From Bacillota bacterium (GTDB lineage: Bacteria; Patescibacteriota; Patescibacteriia; Patescibacteriales; UBA12465): a stretch of DNA of 64,000 bases. Below are positions 4,167 to 56,384 of this stretch, in pieces. The stretch covers positions 75,005-139,004 of the forward strand of contig JBLNBA010000004.1 in the NCBI GenBank assembly GCA_050259635.1. Reading direction: 5' to 3'. Made by a program: the position numbers and the translations under genes. A model generated the notes under the pieces. The model did not search any database, was not told the origin of the DNA, and saw only the letters and a program-made list of their open reading frames with translations. Each line of letters starts with the position of its first letter. The stretch's first letter is position 1.

Positions 4167-5891
4167 ATGGTTAGCCCTAATTTAGCTACAAAGAAAACTC
4201 AAACCGGTACGGAAGAGATGAATGACAATGCCAAGAAGCTCTTCCAGGCGGTATATAACGACCTTAAAAAACCGGATGCTCCCGATGATGAGAGCCCCCG
4301 TCTTCGGGTTTCCACCTTGATTTCAAGGATGGCCTTTTTTTATGAGAAGATCCGCAATGCCGTCGATTATGAGGAAGATCACCTTCTGAGGAAGAATGCC
4401 ATTGCCCGCATCCTTAAGAGGCAGATCGTCATCGAGGGAATTTTGAAATCGATAAATTCCGAACAGCTCGCTCGCCATCTGTTAGAAGAGCTTATTCGCG
4501 CAAGCTATCTTCCCAATAACGTTCTTCCGGAAAGCAAAGCGAAAGACGTTGCGAGAACTCTGGATAAGTATATCAAGCTGAAAGATGCCGCTCTCGAGCA
4601 ATTCCAAACCGGACTGGGCATCAAAGCCGGACTGCAAGAAGGGAAAAATGAGATGAGAGAGAAGAATCGCCTGGTAAATTGGATTATCGCCATGGCTGCC
4701 TGTGAAATTGAAGAAGATTTGGGTCGCAGCCAAGTGAAGCCTGCCATGGTTAATGTGATGTTCGATACTCTCCAGCGGATTATCAAGCTTCCGCCCGAAC
4801 TCCCGCATGGAGATGATTTAGATATCCAGATATATCTGAGCATCAGCCGGACTTTCAGCCGTTTTGATGAGGAGATGCTGTCCTTCGTATTATTCAAATA
4901 TTACAATCAGGGCTGGGTGGATGACCGTCTCGATTCTACTCTTGCGCCAGACGACGGAACGATCAGGAAGATCGCCTTGCGCCTTAATCTCTTGCGCCAA
5001 TCGATTGACGGGCAGATGAAGCATCCTTTGAAAAAGCAGCTGGACCGGATCGTCCGTCGCTATGCTTTATATTTTACCGTTCTGCAGGATGCGATCAGCG
5101 GAGATCCCGCTAAGGTCTATAATGATTTCCGCCAAAATCCCAAGGCTTTTACCTCGCTAGTGAGAAAAGTTTGCGCCGCCAAGTATAAAAAAGCCAAGTC
5201 TCGTCTCTGGAGGGCGGCGATGCGCAGTATCGTCTATATCTTTTTAACGAAATCAGTTTTTGTTTTCTTGATTGAGGTCCCGGCGATAAACTGGTTCAAT
5301 CAGCCGCTTAATCCGGTCGCTCTGGCTATTAACGTCGCTTTCCCGGCCGTCCTGCTCTTTCTGATCGTAACATTCACTCGCGTACCCGATGATAGCAATA
5401 CGGACCGGATTGTTGAAGGAGTCCGGGAAATCGCTATTGCCGGCTCCGAACGCCAACAACCCATAATGTTGCGTAATCCCAAAAAGAGGAGCGGGCCGAT
5501 GAATTTCATGTTCAACCTGATCTACGCCTCGACGTTCTTCATTTCCATTTATTTCATCATCTGGGTTTTGACCCGCGCAAATTTCAATTGGGTCAGCATC
5601 ACCATCTTCCTTTTCTTCCTGGCTTTTGTCAGTTTCTTCAGCATCATCGTGACCCGAGGGGTCAAGGACTTGCTGGTGGTGGAGAAAAAAGAGAATCTTC
5701 CTTCCTTCTTGCTCGATCTCTTTTATATGCCCATTATCATGGCGGGTAAGTGGTTATCAAGCAACGTTTCCAAGGTTAATGTATTTATCTTCCTTTTCGA
5801 CTTCGTTATTGAGGCGCCCTTCAAGATCGTGATTGATATTGCCGAGGAGTGGACAAAATACATTAAGGAACGTAAGGATAACATGGTTTGA
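4167..5891 (+). CDS. hypothetical membrane protein: large soluble N-terminal half, four or more C-terminal TM helices
   Basis: 574-aa ORF with no motif I can assign. Hydrophobic segments include 'IVYIFLTKSVFVFLIEV', 'ALAINVAFPAVLLFLIVTF', 'FMFNLIYASTFFISIYFIIWVL' and 'VSITIFLFFLAFVSFFSIIV'. Confidence 0.6.
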   Translation: MVSPNLATKKTQTGTEEMNDNAKKLFQAVYNDLKKPDAPDDESPRLRVSTLISRMAFFYEKIRNAVDYEEDHLLRKNAIARILKRQIVIEGILKSINSEQLARHLLEELIRASYLPNNVLPESKAKDVARTLDKYIKLKDAALEQFQTGLGIKAGLQEGKNEMREKNRLVNWIIAMAACEIEEDLGRSQVKPAMVNVMFDTLQRIIKLPPELPHGDDLDIQIYLSISRTFSRFDEEMLSFVLFKYYNQGWVDDRLDSTLAPDDGTIRKIALRLNLLRQSIDGQMKHPLKKQLDRIVRRYALYFTVLQDAISGDPAKVYNDFRQNPKAFTSLVRKVCAAKYKKAKSRLWRAAMRSIVYIFLTKSVFVFLIEVPAINWFNQPLNPVALAINVAFPAVLLFLIVTFTRVPDDSNTDRIVEGVREIAIAGSERQQPIMLRNPKKRSGPMNFMFNLIYASTFFISIYFIIWVLTRANFNWVSITIFLFFLAFVSFFSIIVTRGVKDLLVVEKKENLPSFLLDLFYMPIIMAGKWLSSNVSKVNVFIFLFDFVIEAPFKIVIDIAEEWTKYIKERKDNMV

Positions 5892-5892
5892 T

Positions 5893-6606
5893 ATGGCATT
5901 AGGAAAACTATATGTTGCCGCTACACCGATCGGCAACTTAGAAGATATCAGTCTCAGGGCCTTGCGCGTTATGCGTGAGGCCGATTATATTTTGTGTGAA
6001 GACACGCGTCAGACGCGGATCTTGCTCAATGAGCATGATATCAAGACGGCGACGATTTCTTTTCATCAGCACTCCGGCTCGGGAAAGATGTCCCAGCTTT
6101 TGCGCTACCTGGGCGAAGGGAAAAATTTGGTCCTCGTCTCGGATGCCGGTACCCCCGGGATTTCCGATCCTGGTTCGGCTTTAGTCGCGGCTGCGCGTGC
6201 GGAATACGGGGAGGAGTTGGAAGTGTTAAGTCTTCCTGGCCCTAGCGCGGTCATTGCCGCTTTGTCAGTCTCAGGTTGGCCCGCAGATCGCTTCTGCTTT
6301 TTTGGCTTCCTGCCTCATAAAAAAGGAAGGCAGACGATGCTCAAGGAAATTGTTTCCAGCCGCTATCCCGCAGCGTTCTATGAATCTAAGCACCGGATCG
6401 CGAAGTGCCTGGCGGAAATGACCGTGATTAGCAATGACGAAGGGATAGGCTTAGAGTTGATGATTGCGAGGGAAATTACCAAAATGTTCGAGACTGTATA
6501 CTTTGGGAATCCGGCCGATTTAGCAGAAAAACTGGCCGCGGACCCGGATATGCAGAAGGGGGAATTCGTTGTCCTCTGTCGACGGACCGATAAGAAAAAT
6601 ATATGA
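5893..6606 (+). CDS. rsmI: 16S rRNA (cytidine1402-2'-O)-methyltransferase
   Basis: Sequences 'LYVAATPIGNLEDISLRALRVMREADYILCEDTR' and 'SDAGTPGISDPG'. The start is taken at ATG 5893. Confidence 0.9.
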   Translation: MALGKLYVAATPIGNLEDISLRALRVMREADYILCEDTRQTRILLNEHDIKTATISFHQHSGSGKMSQLLRYLGEGKNLVLVSDAGTPGISDPGSALVAAARAEYGEELEVLSLPGPSAVIAALSVSGWPADRFCFFGFLPHKKGRQTMLKEIVSSRYPAAFYESKHRIAKCLAEMTVISNDEGIGLELMIAREITKMFETVYFGNPADLAEKLAADPDMQKGEFVVLCRRTDKKNI

Positions 6607-8054
6607 GCCAAAATAATAAGTTTTATATTACTACCACTCTTCCGTATACCAATTCTGATCCCCATATCGGCTTTGCCGCCGAGCTCATAAAAGCGGATGT
6701 CATTGCTCGTACCCAGCGTCTCTTGGGAAAGGAGGTAGTTTTTAATACCGGAACCGATGAACATGGGTTGAAAGTCTATCAGCTAGCGGAAGTCGCCGGC
6801 CTTTCTCCTCGCGATTATTGTACGCCCTATGCCGAGCGCTTTGCCTCGCTTAAAGAGGCTCTCGACTTGAGTGTCACCAATTTCGTGCGTACTTCGGATG
6901 AACATCATTGCGGAGCGGCCCAGGAATTCTGGAAGCGCTGTGCGGATAAGGGGGATATTTATAAGAAAAATTACAGCGTAAAATATTGTGTGGGCTGCGA
7001 AATGGAGAAGACTGAGTCCGAGCTAATAGATGGCCGTTGCCCCTTGCATCCCGGAAGGGAACTCGAGCTGATCGAGGAAGAGAATTACTTTTTTCGCTTT
7101 TCTAGATACCAGCAGGCTCTCTTGGAATATTTCGATCGCCATCCCCAGTTTGTCGTGCCGTCCCACCGCTTTACGGAAATCCGCAACTTCGTGGCGGCCG
7201 GTTTGCAAGATTTCAGTATCTCCCGGCTAAAGGAAAAGATGCCTAACGGCGTTCCTGTCCCCGGAGATGACGAGCAAGTAATGTATGTATGGTTTGATGC
7301 TTTGGTAAATTATATTTCCACCCTTGGTTGGCCGGAAGATATTGGAAACTTTGAAGCTTTCTGGCCCGGGGTTCAGGTTTGTGGGAAAGATAATCTTAGG
7401 CAGCAATCAGCGATGTGGCAAACGATGCTCTTGTCCGCCGGCTTACCTTTGACGGAGCAGGTATTAGTGTTCGGCTTCCTTACCGCCAACGGGAAGAAGA
7501 TCAGTAAGAGCGCCGGTAATGGCATTGATCCCTTCGAATACGCCGGTCGATACGGGGCAGACGCCTTACGTTATTATCTTTTAACCGAGATCCTTCCTTT
7601 TGAGGATAGTGATTTTTCCGAGAGCCGTTTGCGGCTGAAATATAATGCCGATCTCGCCAACGGGCTTGGCAACTTAGTAGCTCGCGTAAGCACCCTCTTA
7701 GAGAAAAACAGCCTTGAAACCGGCTTGGCTCCTGATCGGGAGGATGGTCTCAAGCGGGTTCTTTCTTCAGGTTTGGATAAATACCAATTCAATCGCGCTC
7801 TCCAATCTATTTGGGCGGAAGTAGCGGCTTGTAATGAGGAACTGACCGGTAAGGCTCCCTGGAAGCTTACAGAAAAGAATGAAATAGCGGCGGTGCTTGG
7901 ACCGCTTGCTCGCAGAATCTTGGCGATCGGCGTAATGCTCGAACCCTTTTTGCCGGCGACGGCAAAAGCGATTATCACCCGCTTTAGCGAGAAACAAATA
8001 AGAAAAGGCGAGTCTCTCTTTCCGCGCTTAGTGGAGGAGAAGGCCGCAGAATAG
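6603..8054 (+). CDS. metG: methionine--tRNA ligase (short form, no C-terminal tRNA-binding domain)
   Basis: HIGH-like motif 'PYTNSDPHIGF', KMSKS-like motif 'KISKSAGNG' and a Cys-rich knuckle 'CVGCE...CPLHP'. There is an ATGA overlap with rsmI. Confidence 0.95.
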   Translation: MSQNNKFYITTTLPYTNSDPHIGFAAELIKADVIARTQRLLGKEVVFNTGTDEHGLKVYQLAEVAGLSPRDYCTPYAERFASLKEALDLSVTNFVRTSDEHHCGAAQEFWKRCADKGDIYKKNYSVKYCVGCEMEKTESELIDGRCPLHPGRELELIEEENYFFRFSRYQQALLEYFDRHPQFVVPSHRFTEIRNFVAAGLQDFSISRLKEKMPNGVPVPGDDEQVMYVWFDALVNYISTLGWPEDIGNFEAFWPGVQVCGKDNLRQQSAMWQTMLLSAGLPLTEQVLVFGFLTANGKKISKSAGNGIDPFEYAGRYGADALRYYLLTEILPFEDSDFSESRLRLKYNADLANGLGNLVARVSTLLEKNSLETGLAPDREDGLKRVLSSGLDKYQFNRALQSIWAEVAACNEELTGKAPWKLTEKNEIAAVLGPLARRILAIGVMLEPFLPATAKAIITRFSEKQIRKGESLFPRLVEEKAAE

Positions 8055-49480: not shown

Positions 49481-49659
49481 AATATTTTAAGCGTTTGCAC
49501 GCAGTTTATAAGTACTATATAAAAAAATCTGCGGAAACCACAGATGAAAATAGCTAATATCAGCTTAATTTACCTCGGCAAGACTTATCTTTGTGCTTGC
49601 TGTCTGTGGTATCTATTCAATTTATGCTCTTATATTAACAAATATAAGAGCTTTGTCAA
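49481..49659 (-). promoter_or_regulatory. rplJ promoter and an L10-leader-like attenuator
   Basis: On the minus strand: TTGACA (49659..49654), 16 nt, TAATAT with a TGn extension. The leader has stem 'ccacaga'/'tctgtgg' enclosing two hairpins. Its 3' strand is shared with a terminator hairpin 'atctgtgg-ttt-ccgcagat' plus U7 (plus-strand 49521..49545). Confidence 0.5.
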
Positions 49660-49664
49660 GCCGC

Positions 49665-50834
49665 CTAAATGATAGTGGGCTTTTTTGCCCGTCGGCGGCC
49701 GTAGTTTGCAAAACGGTGGGCTTCTTCTCTTACCTTAAGTAAAGTCGGTTTGAGGACCGAGGCCAATTCCTTGAATTGCTTAGAAACGCCCTTGGTAAAT
49801 ACCAGGCGGTCTCCTCCGAATTTGGATATTCCAACCATGGGGATATGGATATTGATCTTCCCCAGTTCCCGGGAAAGGAAACTTATCTGCGGGCTGCCTC
49901 CGTCTATCATCACAAGATCCGGCCGATTCCAACCCTCATGCTTAAAGCGGCGGGTAAGGACTTCAAGCAGTCCGCGTTCATCGTCTCCAGCCGGTGCCTC
50001 CTTGATTTTAAATAAACGGTATTCGTCGGACTGCCTGTCGCCATTCTCAAAGACCACCATTGAGGCGTAGCTCTCTTTGCCTTGAAAATGCGAAATATCG
50101 TAACCTTCTATCCGGCCAAGCCTGGGGCTGGACAGATCCTCTTCCCGGCTGAGGAGGGTGACCTCCTGCAGATGGCGGAGAGCTCGCGCTTGTTCCGGAT
50201 TATCCTTGCTGAGTTTCTTTAAAAGGCGGGTTCTCTCGCCGCTAAGCAGGAGAATCAGTTTCTTGATATTTTTTATATATTCTTCGGGAGATATCGCTTC
50301 GACGCAGGCTCCGGGACAAACACCAATCTGATAATCGAAGCACGGGCGGCCGCTACGCGGAGTGCACGTACTATAAGGAAACACTCGACGTAGCAAACGC
50401 AAAGCGGAACTGATTAGGTAATATGCCTGGTATGGGCCGAACACCCGGTATTTATCCGAAGGAAATTTTTTTAATTCCCGCCCTCGGAAAATTATCGGCC
50501 GAGGGTAATCCGCCTTCTCATCAATGGCTACGTAGATGAAAGAACGGTCATCGCGATCAACAATGTTGTATTTCGGCCAATACTTTTTGATGTACTCCGC
50601 CTCCAAGATGATGGCTTCGAGCAAGCTCTCGCAAGGGATATATTTAAGGTCGATAGCCTGGCCGACCATCTCCGCAATCCGGGCGTCGAGATTCTTCTGG
50701 AAGTATTGAGATAAGCGGTTCTTGAGGCTTACGGCCCGCCCCACATATAGCACTTCCCCGTTTTTATCAAGCCAAAAATAGACGCCAGGCGCCTTTGGTA
50801 TTTCTTTTAGCTTGTCTTTCAAGGGGTGGGCCAT
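49665..50834 (-). CDS. uvrC: excinuclease ABC subunit C, short form
   Basis: GIY-YIG motif 'PGVYFWLDKNGEVLYVGRAVSLKNR', Cys cluster 'CFDYQIGVCPGAC' and endonuclease domain 'RIEGYDISHFQG..ASMVVF', 'DLVMIDGG', 'EEAHRFA'. At 389 aa it ends before any (HhH)2 domain. Confidence 0.85.
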   Translation of the reverse strand: MAHPLKDKLKEIPKAPGVYFWLDKNGEVLYVGRAVSLKNRLSQYFQKNLDARIAEMVGQAIDLKYIPCESLLEAIILEAEYIKKYWPKYNIVDRDDRSFIYVAIDEKADYPRPIIFRGRELKKFPSDKYRVFGPYQAYYLISSALRLLRRVFPYSTCTPRSGRPCFDYQIGVCPGACVEAISPEEYIKNIKKLILLLSGERTRLLKKLSKDNPEQARALRHLQEVTLLSREEDLSSPRLGRIEGYDISHFQGKESYASMVVFENGDRQSDEYRLFKIKEAPAGDDERGLLEVLTRRFKHEGWNRPDLVMIDGGSPQISFLSRELGKINIHIPMVGISKFGGDRLVFTKGVSKQFKELASVLKPTLLKVREEAHRFANYGRRRAKKPTII

Positions 50835-50836
50835 AA

Positions 50837-51163
50837 TCAGTAGCCAAAGCGATCAAGGTCGATATATCCGTTTCTTATTATTATTCCTTCCGTAGCCAAA
50901 AGCGCCTCTTTCTTCTTTGTTCCCGAGGCGAAGCCGCCCAGGCCGCCATCACTTCTTACTATTCGGTGGCATGGGACTTTGGGCGCAAAGGGATTATTGT
51001 GCAATGCTTGTCCGACTGCCCGAGCCGCGCCTTTGTTGCCGATCCTTTCCGCTAATTTTCCATAGGTGGTTACTTTACCTTTCGGGATCCGAGTCGCTGC
51101 TTCATAGACTTTTGCCGAAAAAGCACTTATTTTTTTATTCAAAATACCTTTATTCATTGACAT
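50837..51163 (-). CDS. ogt: single-domain methylated-DNA--protein-cysteine methyltransferase (MGMT/Ogt DNA-binding domain)
   Basis: 108 aa with active-site motif 'VPCHRIV' and 'TYGKLAERIG'. Confidence 0.85.
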   Translation of the reverse strand: MSMNKGILNKKISAFSAKVYEAATRIPKGKVTTYGKLAERIGNKGAARAVGQALHNNPFAPKVPCHRIVRSDGGLGGFASGTKKKEALLATEGIIIRNGYIDLDRFGY

Positions 51164-51325
51164 AACGGTAAAAATGCATTATATTGAATTTAGTACTTTA
51201 AGCATCGGAAGAGGCTAAGCGTTACCCTGCCTTTAAGGTTTGGCATATTGCGGTCGCCGCCTCATATTCCGATTCCGGTTTTCCGGGACGCTTGTACGTA
51301 CGGATGTTGGTTAGTGCAACCCGCT

Positions 51326-53854
51326 TCAAATATTTGGAGCGGGTTTTTCTTTTAGGTAAGATTCAAGATACTGCCCTGTGAGGCTATTATGGTTGGTCGC
51401 TACTTGTTCCGGCGTACCGGCGGCTACTAATTTTCCGCCTTTTTCTCCGCCATCCGGCCCGAGATCCAGTATGTAATCCATTGATTTGAGCATGTGGAGG
51501 TTGTGTTCGATTACAAGAACGGAATTTCCTCGTTCAACCAATTTATTGAGGACATCCAAGAGCATGGCGATGTCGTAATAATGGAGGCCGGTCGTCGGTT
51601 CATCCAGGAGATAAAGGGTGCGTTTGCCGAGCGTATGCGTAAGCTCTTTACCGATCTTAATTCTTTGGGCTTCGCCGCCGGATAAAGTTGTGGCGGATTG
51701 GCCGAGCTTAAGATATCCCAATCCAACCGATTGCAGTACGAGCAGCTTGTCAGTGATGTAATAATTACCTTCGAATAGCTCTATTGCCTCGTCGATCGTC
51801 ATATCTAAGACATCGGCGATATTCTTGTCCTTGTATTTTACCTGTAGGGTCTCGCGATTGAAACGGCGGCCGCGGCAAACCTCGCATTCAACCAAGACCG
51901 GAGGCAAGAAGTGCATTTCTATGAGATTAGACCCTGCCCCTTCACAGGCTTCACAGCGTCCACCGGGACGATTGAAAGAAAAACGTGATATGCCATACAT
52001 CCTTTCCTTCGCTTCCGGTAACGAGGCGAAAAAATCCCGGATAGGGGTAAAGATCCCAGTATAGGTCGCCGGGTTGGAACGAGGCGTCCGTCCGATAGGA
52101 GACTGATCGATGACGACGATTTTATTGATGTATTCTGCACCTTTGATATCCTCGACGTTCGTTAGCTTGGCCTTCTTGCCGGGATGATTCTTAATATAGC
52201 TTAGATTCTTGTAGACGACATCATAAAGGAGAGAGGATTTGCCTGACCCGGATACTCCGCTGATGCCTACTAATCTCCCTAAGGGGATTTCCGCTTTGAC
52301 GTTTTTAAGATTATGGCTTTTGGCGCCGATAACCTTGAGGCTGCCGTGATTTTGAGACCGCCGGCGATCCGGGATGCCGATTGTCTTATGTCCGGCTAGA
52401 TATTGGAGGGTAAGGGATTGGCTCAGGGGTTTCTTTATTTCTTTATCGAGGAGCTCTTTGGTTTTGCCGGACGCTTCAACTTCTCCGCCATGTACGCCGG
52501 CTAGCGGTCCTAAATCAACCAGATAATCCGAGGCTAAGATGGTCCTTTCATCATGCTCGACGATAATCACGGTGTTATTCTTATCCCGAAGAGTCTCTAA
52601 GGTCTTGATTAGGCGGTCAGTATCACGTTCATGCAGGCCGATTGTCGGTTCATCCAGGACGTAAAGGGTACGTGAGAGTTGGGAACCGATTTGCGAGGAA
52701 AGGCGGATGCGTTGCGCTTCGCCACCGGAAAGGGTTTCAGCCTCGCGATCGAGAGAGAGATAGTTCAAGCCCACTTTATTCAAAAACTCCAAACGGTTAA
52801 TGATTTGAGAGATAACATTTTCCGCAATGGCGGATTGTCTCTTTGTCATCTTTTGGTAGAATTTCCAAAAAAAATCATAAGCTTTGTCGATACTTAAATG
52901 GCTGGTATCGGCGATGTTTTTCCCATCGATCCGCACGGACAAGGCCTCGGGCCTCATTCTTTTCCCTTGGCATTCAGGGCAGATCTTATCGGCATGATAG
53001 CCTACTTTTCCTAATCCGGTGCATTGCGGGCAGGCGCCATGAGGAGAATTGAAAGAAAATAGTCTCGGTTCTACCTCCGGAAACGCAAAATTGTCTTTCG
53101 GGCAGGTCCAATTGGAGGACAATAAGAATTCTTTGCCCTTAAAGATGACGACCACTAAGCCGTGGCTGTAATCGATCGCATTTTCCACCGCTTCAAAAAG
53201 CCTTCCTTCATCATCCAGCATGACTTTATCGGTCACGATATCGATGTCATGCTTTTTCTTTGCGTCGAGCTTGATGCTGTCACGGAGGTTGATCATTTTT
53301 CCATCGATCCGAGCCTCGCTGTAACCTAGTGAGAGATAATCATAGAGTAACTGATAGTATTCTCCTTTTCTCCCCCTTACCACCGGGCTAAGAATGATCG
53401 CGTATTTCTGGCCATTTTCCTTGCCGCGATTAATAATGATATCGATCATTTCTTCCAGGGTAAGCTTCTCTATCTTGGTTCCGCAAATGGGGCAAAAAAC
53501 TTCCCCGATGCGAGCATACAGGACACGAAGGTAATCATGCACCTCGGTCAGGGTGCCAACCGTCGACCGGGGATTGTGGGATAAGGCCTTTTGGTCGATG
53601 GAAATCGCGGGGGCGAGCCCTAAGATCTCATCTACATCCGCCGGTTTCTTCTGTCCTAGGAATTGGCGCATATACGGAGAGAGAGATTCTACATATTGGC
53701 GCTGCCCTTCCGCGAAAATAGTATCAAAAGCCAGGGATGATTTCCCTGAGCCGGAAACGCCCGTAATGACCGTTAAGGAGTTATGCGGTATTTCGAGGTC
53801 GATATTTTTCAGATTGTGCATCCGCGCGCCGCGGATGATGATCTTATCTTGCAT
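51326..53854 (-). CDS. uvrA: excinuclease ABC subunit A
   Basis: Two ABC modules ('[14 protein letters not shown]' and '[14 protein letters not shown]', with two 'LSGGEAQR' signatures) plus Zn modules ('CPICG', 'CPQCTGLG', 'CEACEGAG'). Confidence 0.97.
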
Positions 53855-53883
53855 AAGAGGTTGCTGGATGGCAGGACATCAAA

Positions 53884-54309
53884 TTATTTATATATCTTTC
53901 CCAGTTTATAGCGCTCAATCATCAACGCGGATCCTTCAAAGAGCGGCGAGGGCAATTCGTTTAAGGAAAACCATTCCCAGCGTTCCCACTTTTCCGGCTC
54001 GGTTATCGCCGGTTTCCCCGAGTAGGTGTGGGCAACGAAGCCGACGTTTACATAATGCTTGCCTTGCTCCAGGGCCCCGAGTTCGTCCGCCAATGATACG
54101 AGCTCAAGGTCGCTTACAATGAGACCTGTCTCCTCATGGGCTTCACGGATGGCAGCCTGGATCATATTTTCTCCGAATTCCAGGTGGCCTCCCGGAAAGC
54201 TCCAGGTGCCGTAGCCGTGCTTGGAGAGCCTGAGGCCGAATAGGGCCTTGCCCTGCTCATTTCTTATCATTACCCCTACGCCTATTTTCGGGCGATTTTC
54301 GTTTTCCAT
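53884..54309 (-). CDS. NUDIX hydrolase (MutT-like)
   Basis: Nudix box '[24 protein letters not shown]'. The start is taken at 'MENEN' (54309), which overlaps the uvrB 3' end by 53 nt. Alternative starts are 54351 and 54270. Confidence 0.8.
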
Positions 54310-56176
54310 ATTTTTGTTCGTTAATAATTTCGATTTCGGCCCGCTCTTCATCCAATCCGAGCAGGCTTTCGATCTTTTTTACGATAGTTTTAGGGGTAAT
54401 ACCATGAGCGGCATTATATTCCAGCTGTTTTTTGCGCCGGCGTCCTGATTCTTTCATGGCGTTCTTGATGGAATCGGTTAAAGTATCGGCATAGAGGATT
54501 ATTTTGCCGGAAACATTTCTGGCGGCCCTACCCATGATTTGCAACAGCGAGGTTTGGCTACGCAGGAATCCCTCCCTGTCCGCATCCAGGATGGCTACCA
54601 AGGTTACCTCTGGCAAATCTAAGCCCTCTCTTAGTAGATTGACGCCGATCAGGACGTCAAAAGCTCCTTCACGGAAAGCCTTGAGGATATCGGTACGCTC
54701 GAAGGTCTTGATATCGGAATGTAGGTAATTGGCGCGTATCCCCTTCTGATTAAGGTAATTGCTGAGATCTTCCGCCTGCTTTTTGGTCAGAGTGTTGATG
54801 ATTGCCCTCTCGGAGCGTTCTGCAATCGCCTCTACTTCCTTCATCACGTCATTAATTTGACTGTAGTTTTCCTCCTTGACGAAAACCGGCCGGACTTCGA
54901 TTTCCGGGTCGACCAGGCCGGTCGGGCGGATGATCTGTTCGACGACTTGTTCAGAGTGTTCTTTTTCGTAATCGCCAGGAGTGGCGGTAGTGAAGATGAT
55001 CTGCCCCACTCTTTTCTGGAATTCCGTGAATTTAAGCGGCCGATTATCTAGGGCACTGGGAAGCCGCCAGCCGTATTGGACCAGAATATCTTTACGCGAG
55101 CGGTCGCCATTATACATGCCTCTTATCTGGGGAACGGTTATGTGGGATTCGTCGATGATCGTGAGGAAATCTGGATGCCCATCTTTCCAGGGAAAATAAC
55201 TCAATAATGGATCCGGAGCTTCGCCGGCCAATTTTCCCGAGAGATGGCGCGAATAGTTTTCTATCCCATGGCAATATCCGAGGGTGTGCAGCATCTCGAT
55301 GTCATAGCGAGTGCGTCTTTCCAGGCGCTCTGCCTCTAGTAATAAGCCCTCGCGGCGAAAATATTCCAAGCGTTCATTCAACTCTTCTTCGATATTCTTT
55401 ATCGCTTGTTCGATCTGAGGCTGGGTGGTAATGAAGTGTTTCGGCGGGAAGACTACTATCTCCTTAAGATTCTCGATGATATTACGGGTAACATTGTCTA
55501 TGACGGCTAAATCCGAAACCGTCTGGCCGGCCATTTCGACCCGATAGATGATATTTTCTGACATCGGCCTAATCTCAAAGACATCGCCCCTGACTCGGAA
55601 CTCTCCGCGTTTAACGTCTCCGTTTACCCGTTCGAATTGCATGGAGATCAGCTGGCGGATGAGATCAATGCGGGTGATCACCGTCCCCTGTTCGAGATGT
55701 AAAGAAGCCTGGAGGTAGTTAAGAGGGACGCCAAGATTATATATGCAAGACACCGAAGCGACAATGATAACGTCCCGCCGGCTAAGTAAGGCCGAGGTCG
55801 CACCGTGTCTGAGCCTGTCCATCTCTTCATTGATCATTGCCTCCTTGTCTATATATGTATCGGTAATCGGCAGATAGGCTTCCGGCTGGTAGTAATCGTA
55901 ATAAGAAACGAAATAATGCACCGCATTTTCCGGAAAGAAATTCTTATATTCCCGATAGAGCTGGGCGGCCAGCGCTTTATTAGGAGCGATCACCAGGGCC
56001 GGCTGGTCGAAGGCGGCGATTACATTAGCGGCCGTAAAGGTCTTTCCCGACCCGGTAACACCAAGCAATGTTTGGTGCGCAAAACCTTGCTCGATCCCTT
56101 GGATGAGCTTAGTTATTGCCTGTGGCTGGTCGCCTGCAGGTTCAAATTCTGATCGTAGCTGGAATGTTCCGGCCAT
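54257..56176 (-). CDS. uvrB: excinuclease ABC subunit B
   Basis: Sequences 'LLGVTGSGKTFT', 'IIDESHIT' and the helicase motif 'QIMGRAARN'. At 639 aa, its C-terminal tail shows no recognisable UVR motif. Confidence 0.95.
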   Translation of the reverse strand: MAGTFQLRSEFEPAGDQPQAITKLIQGIEQGFAHQTLLGVTGSGKTFTAANVIAAFDQPALVIAPNKALAAQLYREYKNFFPENAVHYFVSYYDYYQPEAYLPITDTYIDKEAMINEEMDRLRHGATSALLSRRDVIIVASVSCIYNLGVPLNYLQASLHLEQGTVITRIDLIRQLISMQFERVNGDVKRGEFRVRGDVFEIRPMSENIIYRVEMAGQTVSDLAVIDNVTRNIIENLKEIVVFPPKHFITTQPQIEQAIKNIEEELNERLEYFRREGLLLEAERLERRTRYDIEMLHTLGYCHGIENYSRHLSGKLAGEAPDPLLSYFPWKDGHPDFLTIIDESHITVPQIRGMYNGDRSRKDILVQYGWRLPSALDNRPLKFTEFQKRVGQIIFTTATPGDYEKEHSEQVVEQIIRPTGLVDPEIEVRPVFVKEENYSQINDVMKEVEAIAERSERAIINTLTKKQAEDLSNYLNQKGIRANYLHSDIKTFERTDILKAFREGAFDVLIGVNLLREGLDLPEVTLVAILDADREGFLRSQTSLLQIMGRAARNVSGKIILYADTLTDSIKNAMKESGRRRKKQLEYNAAHGITPKTIVKKIESLLGLDEERAEIEIINEQKYGKRKSPENRRRGNDKK

Positions 56177-56328
56177 AAGTGTTCTTTAACGCCAAAAGCG
56201 GAAGATTGCTTCCGATAACGGCAAGTATTCAGGTTGGACCGTGGTATCGAACATATCAAAGGAGGCGATAAAAACGGTCTGGTCATTGTAGCACAAAATC
56301 CTGGAACTGGATAGATTGGACGGGCGAT

Positions 56329-56362
56329 GGCGAAAGCGACCGGTCAAGAATGATCCGGTCGC
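56329..56362 (-). terminator. probable ldh terminator
   Basis: Minus-strand hairpin 'gcgaccgg...ccggtcgc' (8 bp) followed by 'tttcgcc', which is a weak U-tract. Confidence 0.45.
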
Positions 56363-56384
56363 TTCAGATAAGGTATATATTAGC

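Follow-up and report, generated by a model that had tools for sequence, protein, structure and literature searches.

The uvrA, uvrB and uvrC genes are dispersed in Escherichia coli, and Bacillus subtilis has only a uvrBA pair. In E. coli, the C-terminal UVR domain of UvrB binds UvrC and auto-inhibits UvrB, and the Cho nuclease of the same species reportedly acts with UvrB lacking this C-terminal domain. To our knowledge, the UvrB-UvrC incision complex is still unsolved. Here we analyzed a uvrB-uvrA-uvrC cluster on the minus strand of a 64,000-nucleotide (nt) stretch of DNA (referred to as the window; contig JBLNBA010000004.1 of assembly GCA_050259635.1, positions 75,005 to 139,004). We consider it likely that the cluster is a clade-typical, inherited operon of Falkowbacteria-like Patescibacteria and not a newly assembled one, and that it encodes a domain-reduced, catalytically intact excinuclease.

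In E. coli, the UVR-mediated contact between UvrB and UvrC is required for 3' incision and the (HhH)2 domain of UvrC for 5' incision, and the insertion domain of UvrA contributes DNA contacts in model systems (PMC7835731). When (HhH)2 is removed from UvrC of Deinococcus radiodurans, the protein continues to bind UvrB and DNA and to incise on both sides, with a weaker 5' incision; the contact with UvrB is needed only for the 3' cut (PMC10085695, 2023). UvrA proteins are divided into class I, which has the UvrB-binding and insertion domains, and class II, which is devoid of the UvrB-binding domain (PMC3167621). Alkyltransferase-like (ATL) proteins, which have no N-domain, bind UvrA and UvrC and not UvrB, and pass O6-alkylguanine lesions to excision repair (PMC10779285). 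As for gene order, uvrBAC is conserved in Thaumarchaeota and has been proposed to be an ancestral operon (PMC3379541, Bartossek et al. 2012), and a "uvrABC operon" has been mentioned for Clostridioides difficile (PMC4689574). We found no literature description of clade-wide UvrABC domain reduction or of paired UVR loss, and nothing specific on uvrABC in Patescibacteria or the candidate phyla radiation.

Five open reading frames (ORFs) and a 162-nt spacer between uvrA and MGMT fill positions 49665..56176 of the window, in the following minus-strand order.

54257..56176, minus strand: uvrB, 639 aa, with helicase core, UvrA/Mfd-interaction domain and UvrB motif (Pfam)
53884..54309, minus strand: Nudix hydrolase gene, 141 aa; an alternative ATG at 54351 would give 155 aa
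51326..53854, minus strand: uvrA, 842 aa, with two ABC ATPase modules and the UvrB-binding domain
50837..51163, minus strand: MGMT (O6-alkylguanine-DNA alkyltransferase), C-terminal domain only, 108 aa; Pfam DNA_binding_1, 5.6e-33
49665..50834, minus strand: mini-uvrC, 389 aa, with GIY-YIG, four-Cys motif and active RNase H

The genes form two tight blocks, uvrB-Nudix-uvrA and MGMT-uvrC. The overlap of uvrB and the Nudix gene is 53 nt (95 nt if the longer Nudix ORF is used), and the gaps are 29 nt between the Nudix gene and uvrA, 162 nt between uvrA and MGMT, and 2 nt between MGMT and uvrC (TGA TT ATG). The gene identities, order, spacing and tight coupling given in a first-pass annotation of the window agreed with ORF calls, Pfam, NCBIfam and PDB searches and our reading of the junctions. 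A chance arrangement and a chimeric or misassembled cluster were ruled out by the reproduction of the five-gene order in an independent Logan assembly and in four related metagenome-assembled genomes (MAGs; loci L002, L003, L005 and L009, the contig of L002 ending within uvrB).

One Logan assembly and a single NCBI MAG contained the identical UvrC, and the closest named relatives by UvrC, at 82% identity, were Candidatus Falkowbacteria, which form a phylum within the Parcubacteria/Patescibacteria group. In public records, the source MAG bears the label "Bacillota bacterium", and many relatives (L005, L010, L012, L014 and others) that of "uncultured Gammaproteobacteria". These labels are probably wrong, as the Uvr proteins and the synteny point to Falkowbacteria/Patescibacteria.

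We compared the cluster with 80 loci from species-representative genomes of the clade, all of them Patescibacteria-type MAGs, in which the window proteins were located by tblastn. On one strand and in the order uvrB>uvrA>uvrC, the three genes were found in 58 of the 60 loci that extend 6 kb or more upstream of uvrC, and uvrA lay just upstream of uvrC in 65 of the 66 loci with at least 3 kb upstream. Eighteen loci were tight and carried no insert, and the uvrA/uvrC junctions overlapped in several. Besides, we used as an outgroup a more distant lineage, retrieved by a metagenome scan, that has UVR-containing short UvrCs. Its gene order was less fixed: among 31 loci, 13 showed uvrB>uvrA>uvrC, 3 showed uvrA>uvrC only, uvrA was divergent in 4, and uvrC stood alone in 11. 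The first-pass annotation had presented the collinear cluster as a special merger in this genome, the three genes being dispersed in most well-studied bacteria. The clade counts do not bear this out, and with the 13 collinear outgroup loci and the documented thaumarchaeal order, the synteny is both widespread and previously described. Synteny of this kind is the norm for the lineage and tells little; the trimmed proteins are of greater interest.

UvrA reached 1186 bits with NF001503 (cut-off 1147) and 1131 bits with TIGR00630 (cut-off 730), and matched PDB 2r6f with E = 1.4e-289. The UvrB-binding domain is kept (Pfam UvrA_inter, 3e-23, residues 132-237), and so are the ATPase and zinc modules. 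The protein aligned to residues 21-313 and 418-957 of 2r6f (Geobacillus UvrA), residues 314-417 being without counterpart, and positions ~296-402 of the NCBIfam profile were unmatched. The insertion domain of about 105 aa is missing, and only 13 residues separate the CxxC pairs of Zn module 2 (CPQC-13-CPEC); a linker of 12-13 aa is found at this place in 60 of 61 clade UvrAs. This UvrA has the UvrB-binding domain as in class I but is devoid of the insertion domain alone, and therefore fits neither the class I nor the class II definition. Furthermore, insertion-less UvrAs occur in outgroup loci whose UvrB and UvrC retain UVR, so that the insertion domain has been lost more widely than UVR.

UvrB scored 930 bits with NF003673 (cut-off 743), contained Pfam UvrB_inter, Helicase_C and UvrB, and matched PDB 9gy7_E with E = 9e-232. 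It covered positions 2-605 of the 653 of the NCBIfam profile, leaving 606-653 unmatched, and its alignment to the 658-residue Bacillus UvrB (PDB) ended at about residue 606. The protein has no C-terminal UVR domain (domain 4): there was no PF02151 match at E<=10 and none with a custom UVR hidden Markov model (HMM), and a short K/R-rich tail stands where the domain would be. Clade UvrBs end 15 to 45 aa, typically 15 to 20 aa, past the GITP..KKIE.FLD motif. We rejected a UVR domain hidden in the Nudix overlap or encoded separately, because relatives in which the uvrB-uvrA junction is 6-40 nt have no room for it. The K/R-rich tail is encoded in 54257..54309 (minus strand), overlapping the Nudix start in another frame, and an overlap of ~50 nt is kept in four relatives (L002, L005, L009 and L011); the sequence of the tail may thus reflect the overlap and not the function of UvrB.

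UvrC passed TIGR00194 narrowly (304 bits, cut-off 285.45), and PRK00558-type models remained below cut-off. From the N-terminus, it consists of GIY-YIG (residues 3-99; PDB 1yd6, E = 8e-21), the Cys motif (C157, C165, C173 and C177), a shortened hairpin (201-225), a disordered linker (228-237) and an active RNase H domain (241-384; Pfam PF08459, 1.2e-32), after which 5 residues lead to the C-terminus. In the UVR hairpin, ~12 residues, including the FExAA..R signature, are deleted. An AlphaFold2 (AF2) model made with database homologues (predicted local distance difference test score, pLDDT, 82) has predicted helices at 183-197, 201-211 and 213-225 and confident nuclease domains of both kinds, and its Foldseek matches included 2nrz/2nrt and 1yd6. 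Across clade species, UvrC identity was 55-82%, and in 78 sequences Y19, Y30, R40, E78, N90, the four Cys and the DDH residues D246, D311 and H373 were invariant. According to Pfam, UVR, the inactive RNase H1 platform domain (PF22920) and HHH were each found in none of the 78 window-clade UvrCs. The 36 canonical-length relatives contained UVR in 35 cases, PF22920 in 33 and HHH_5 in 25, and 95 diverse short UvrC cluster representatives of 370-470 aa contained UVR in 79 cases and neither PF22920 nor HHH. Judging from these domain counts, the reduction of UvrC is nested and conserved.

The UVR domain is missing from UvrB and UvrC together. The custom HMM was built from outgroup UvrCs, and the C-terminus of E. 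coli UvrB served as a positive control (E = 1.2e-11). It detected UVR in all 17 complete outgroup UvrB tails (E from 1e-5 to 1e-11) and in nearly all outgroup UvrCs, whereas in 57 UvrBs and 78 UvrCs of the window clade it gave nothing better than E = 0.06. The contrast between clade and outgroup is thus complete (Fisher p ~4e-17 on counts). The paired loss in both partners provides independent evolutionary support for the UVR-UVR interaction.

Several points weigh against an intact, reduced excinuclease. The joint UVR loss may be a single ancestral event, in which case the counts are of lineages and not of independent events; we therefore read the contrast as a single, well-supported co-loss and not as many. 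The outgroup contigs carry no taxonomy. In the AF2 model, a short helical hairpin (201-225) is retained at the place of UVR, and the element may partly persist. Besides, UvrA (1186 against 1147 bits) and UvrC (304 against 285) pass their equivalogs only narrowly, NCBI names UvrC only as "GIY-YIG nuclease family protein", and all functions of these proteins are deduced from sequence. By analogy with E. coli, a system without the UVR contact and (HhH)2 might be impaired, or might depend on a partner encoded elsewhere. No partner for the missing parts was conserved inside the operon, tight loci consisting of uvrB, uvrA and uvrC only, in a genome of which 64 kb was seen.

The first-pass annotation described the cluster as a DNA-damage toolkit, that is, a purpose-built, co-regulated module in which Nudix, MGMT and excision repair were joined by selection. 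The very tight coupling at three junctions (the 53-nt overlap and the 29- and 2-nt gaps), the location of all five genes on one strand and the five-gene order kept in four relatives accord with such a module. So do the occurrence of MGMT beside uvrC in two configurations, given that ATL relatives bind UvrA and UvrC, and the fact that the Nudix, CYTH and His-phosphatase inserts all act on phosphorylated small molecules. However, the uvrBAC core is older than both inserts, as the 18 insert-free loci illustrate, and the two junctions are evidently permissive insertion sites, to judge from what they contain. No more than 6 close relatives have the Nudix gene at the uvrB-uvrA junction, and in 17 of 80 MGMT directly precedes uvrC; the two occur together in four (L002, L003, L005 and L009). 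The same slots also accommodate CYTH proteins (14 loci), an EamA-type membrane protein (8 loci), transporters, GNAT acetyltransferases, His_Phos_1, DUF3800, Sua5/YrdC, DUF3750 and restriction-modification genes. By these distributions, Nudix and MGMT are variable passengers, to different degrees. We thus regard a purpose-built module as rather unlikely, and the absence of a shared operator and the division of the cluster at the spacer, both described below, also count against it.

The CYTH protein, of ~195 aa (e.g., L028 6527..7111), is the commonest insert between uvrB and uvrA, and the three commonest identified inserts at this junction, Nudix, CYTH and His-phosphatase, share the phosphorylated-small-molecule theme, which may or may not be meaningful. 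The uvrB-uvrA junction of L055 contains a 525-aa ORF on the opposite strand (5329..6906, minus), in which the DNA-binding domain of LexA is fused to an S24 peptidase and a C-5 cytosine DNA methylase.

The Nudix protein retains the whole Nudix box (Pfam NUDIX, 2.6e-22), and its 141-aa start (ATG 54309), the same as in the public gene call, is likelier than the longer one. The best solved relatives in a PDB sequence search were Rickettsia 4kyx, Arabidopsis NUDX1 and human NUDT15. It failed the MutT equivalogs (TIGR00586, 40.3 against 97.9 bits; PRK10776, 37.5 against 148) and scored below the cut-off of every NCBIfam equivalog. The earlier designation "MutT-like" was accordingly a guess, and the name that its sequence appears to justify is only "Nudix hydrolase, NUDT1/NUDT15-like". 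A functional tie between Nudix and the uvr genes is not yet credible, unlike that of MGMT to uvrC.

MGMT scored 94.5 bits with TIGR00589 (cut-off 46.4). It has no N-terminal domain of the Ogt/Ada kind: it aligned only to residues 74-153 of the 165-aa Mycobacterium tuberculosis OGT, and it reached 75 bits with the full-length equivalog PRK10286, whose cut-off is 192. The active-site residues are present (PCHR Cys, Tyr, RAVG Arg finger, NP hinge and EG Glu), and the Cys, His, Glu, Tyr, Arg finger and Asn hinge are kept in all 14 aligned homologues (window and 13 relatives). These features predict a working suicide alkyltransferase without an N-terminal domain. In 6 of 72 outgroup loci, uvrC is directly followed by the gene for a similar PCHR protein of 89-132 aa. 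As MGMT is upstream of uvrC in the clade and downstream in the outgroup, the adjacency arose at least twice, and a functional tie of MGMT to uvrC is credible. Thus, the MGMT-uvrC part of the proposed toolkit found support, and the part that joined Nudix to it did not. This recurrence of the adjacency hints at a link between direct reversal and excision repair that experiments could test. We also observed single-domain PCHR alkyltransferases right after uvrC in the outgroup loci L116, L126, L127, L136, L140, L145 and L146, where UvrC retains UVR; in L126 the alkyltransferase ORF runs in frame into RF2 (prfB)-like sequence, with 449 aa in total.

As for regulation, SOS/LexA-like operators were looked for in the regions upstream of uvrB (56177..56384) and between uvrA and MGMT (51164..51325). 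Seven known LexA-box types were absent from both regions, a LexA of other specificity being possible, and no palindrome or 8-mer motif was common to the 59 upstream regions of the window and 58 relatives. The spacer contains other elements, which are given below together with those that flank the cluster.

51157..51353, plus strand: candidate opposite-strand small RNA unit in the uvrA/MGMT spacer (promoter/terminator scan)
56285..56293, minus strand: extended -10-like element TGCTACAAT upstream of uvrB, a putative assignment read from the sequence
49659..49632, minus strand: promoter-like site of rplJ-rplL, TTGACA-16-TAATAT with TG upstream (promoter scan)
49511..49627, minus strand: L10 leader before rplJ (Rfam RF00557, 41.9 bits against a gathering score of 44, E = 3.4e-4)

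On the plus strand of the spacer, a promoter-like TTGACA-17-TATATT (51157..51185) matches 11 of 12 positions, and transcription from it would start at about 51192; a hairpin of 12 bp with a T run behind it (51318..51345) extends over the uvrA stop codon. Read in the sense direction, this hairpin lacks a T run and is therefore not a canonical uvrA terminator. We surveyed 25 loci with an ORF-free gap of 150-480 nt after uvrA. Promoter matches of at least 10/12 were found on the opposite strand in 19 and on the sense strand in 6 (Fisher p 5e-4), and a terminator beside the uvrA stop was found on the opposite strand in 16 and on the sense strand in 1 (Fisher p 1e-5). The predicted RNA of 159 nt folds with -59.9 kcal/mol (z = -3.7), partly due to the terminator. 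These results suggest that the spacer may encode a small RNA of ~160 nt on the opposite strand, convergent with uvrA. We speculate that such an RNA, convergent with a read-through uvrBA-uvrC transcript and overlapping its intergenic part, could reduce the expression of uvrC in relation to that of uvrA and uvrB.

The spacer RNA matched no Rfam family at E<=1, and at E<=10 gave only sub-threshold, terminator-driven matches; tRNA genes were found neither in the window nor in the gaps of 22 relatives scanned. Using blastn, MAFFT and RNAalifold, we found that spacer elements align only within subclades, with a consensus of 4 pairs, too weak for a covariance model, and they are therefore not assignable to one family. 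In L021, L024, L025, L027-L030, L033 and L035, the uvrA-uvrC spacer (e.g., L027 9688..10000) is ORF-free over 280-340 nt, is 80-95% identical between species and contains a CCGG-loop-CCGG hairpin. In L027, L029, L030 and L035, CCCTAGCAAC (as CCCCAGCAAC in L021) is complementary to part of the terminator hairpin. This spacer matched no known RNA family.

The uvr cluster is bounded on both sides. Upstream, an ldh/mdh gene is closed by a hairpin (56365..56331), and downstream of uvrC, rplJ-rplL (Pfam L10 and L7/L12 matches) has its own promoter-like site and leader. In most relative loci, rplJ-rplL is likewise found 3' of uvrC. Although it falls slightly short of the gathering score, the L10 leader is probably real and represents a divergent patescibacterial form. 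TGCTACAAT sits 3' of the hairpin that ends ldh/mdh and is, from its sequence and position, likely the start of the uvr transcription unit, although a consensus scan requiring both hexamers did not report it.

A reading of the domain losses as decay, in which excision repair is being lost in reduced-genome, probably host-dependent bacteria and the remnants are non-functional or repurposed, would accord with the small genomes of Patescibacteria, with the importance in E. coli of each of the three missing elements and with the scores of UvrA and UvrC barely above their family cut-offs. The constraint on these proteins nevertheless argues against it. The five genes in the window have no frameshifts or internal stops, clade ORF lengths are very uniform over about 60-78 species (medians of 612 aa for UvrB, 839 aa for UvrA and 389 aa for UvrC), and UvrC keeps 55-82% identity with every catalytic residue invariant. 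Furthermore, the deletions are precise, e.g., the 12- to 13-aa Zn2 linker in 60 of 61 UvrAs, and 58 of 60 loci maintain the gene order; this pattern corresponds to purifying selection and not to drift. Hence, we judge decay very improbable. It is hardly credible at all that the 389-aa protein is a Cho-like accessory nuclease with the true UvrC elsewhere in the genome, since, although it is short, is without the UVR signature as is E. coli Cho and is named only GIY-YIG nuclease by NCBI, it contains the second (RNase H, DDH) nuclease domain missing from E. coli Cho, a class II Cho (PMC10085695), reaches only 53 bits with the Cho model (cut-off 367) while passing the UvrC model, and is encoded at the place of uvrC in the operon of every relative.

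If the cluster is an inherited operon for a reduced and catalytically intact excinuclease, UvrA2-UvrB would locate and verify damage as usual, and mini-UvrC would be brought to UvrB-DNA by some contact that does not involve the UVR-UVR hairpin pair and would make both cuts. MGMT would directly reverse O6-alkylguanine and may, in an ATL-like manner, pass bulky O6-adducts to UvrA/UvrC. Transcription probably begins upstream of uvrB and reads through, and the uvrA-MGMT spacer would house a convergent small transcription unit instead of an operator. The activity of D. radiodurans UvrC without (HhH)2 and the reported behaviour of Cho make it plausible by analogy that mini-UvrC docks on the pre-incision complex of UvrB and DNA without UVR. 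We would go further only tentatively: it is possible, but in our view doubtful, that the clade has a mechanistically distinct minimal excinuclease, with alternative UvrB-UvrC docking, a UvrC that works without the RNase H1 platform or (HhH)2 and a UvrA that discriminates damage without its insertion domain, possibly together with an ATL-like MGMT adaptor and antisense RNA tuning of uvrC.

The UVR contact, (HhH)2 and the UvrA insertion domain are deemed important in model systems, yet at least 80 species-level genomes conserve the system without them, and thousands of related database proteins are likewise devoid of these domains. The clade is thus a natural experiment on the truly essential parts of UvrABC, and its smaller proteins, such as the 389-aa UvrC, suit structural work on the UvrB-UvrC incision complex.

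Compared with known systems, the cluster shares the uvrB-uvrA-uvrC order with the uvrBAC genes of Thaumarchaeota, which belong to another domain of life; the comparison is one of gene order. With canonical UvrABC (E. coli, Bacillus, Thermotoga and Deinococcus), the clade shares the ATPase modules, the UvrB-binding domain, the helicase core, GIY-YIG, the DDH RNase H and the Cys-rich motif, whereas it lacks the UvrA insertion domain, UvrB domain 4 and, in UvrC, the UVR signature, the RNase H1 platform and (HhH)2. The MGMT protein resembles the ATL proteins (E. coli YbaZ/eAtl and Schizosaccharomyces pombe Atl1) in consisting of the C-terminal AGT (alkylguanine-DNA alkyltransferase) fold only, and its gene sits exactly between uvrA and uvrC, whose products are the ATL partners. 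However, the active-site Cys is replaced in ATL proteins (PWHR), whereas MGMT here keeps PCHR and the Glu-His-Cys network in 14 of 14 homologues, and its sequence is nearer to true AGTs (M. tuberculosis OGT, 1.6e-17) than to Atl1 (3.4e-12). We therefore rejected its assignment as an ATL, the Cys being kept in the window and all 13 aligned relatives. An ATL-like hand-off on top of direct reversal is, by analogy, a reasonable hypothesis, and the protein would be intermediate between AGT and ATL.

The truncated UvrC of D. radiodurans indicates that loss of (HhH)2, as in the window UvrC, is compatible with activity; those truncations are laboratory-made and keep the UvrB-binding helices and RNase H1, whereas the natural mini-UvrC lacks RNase H1 and the UVR signature too. 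E. coli Cho is likewise a nuclease with GIY-YIG and the Cys motif that is said to act with UvrB without the UVR domain. It has no RNase H nuclease domain and makes only the 3'-side cut, whereas the window UvrC has both nuclease domains.

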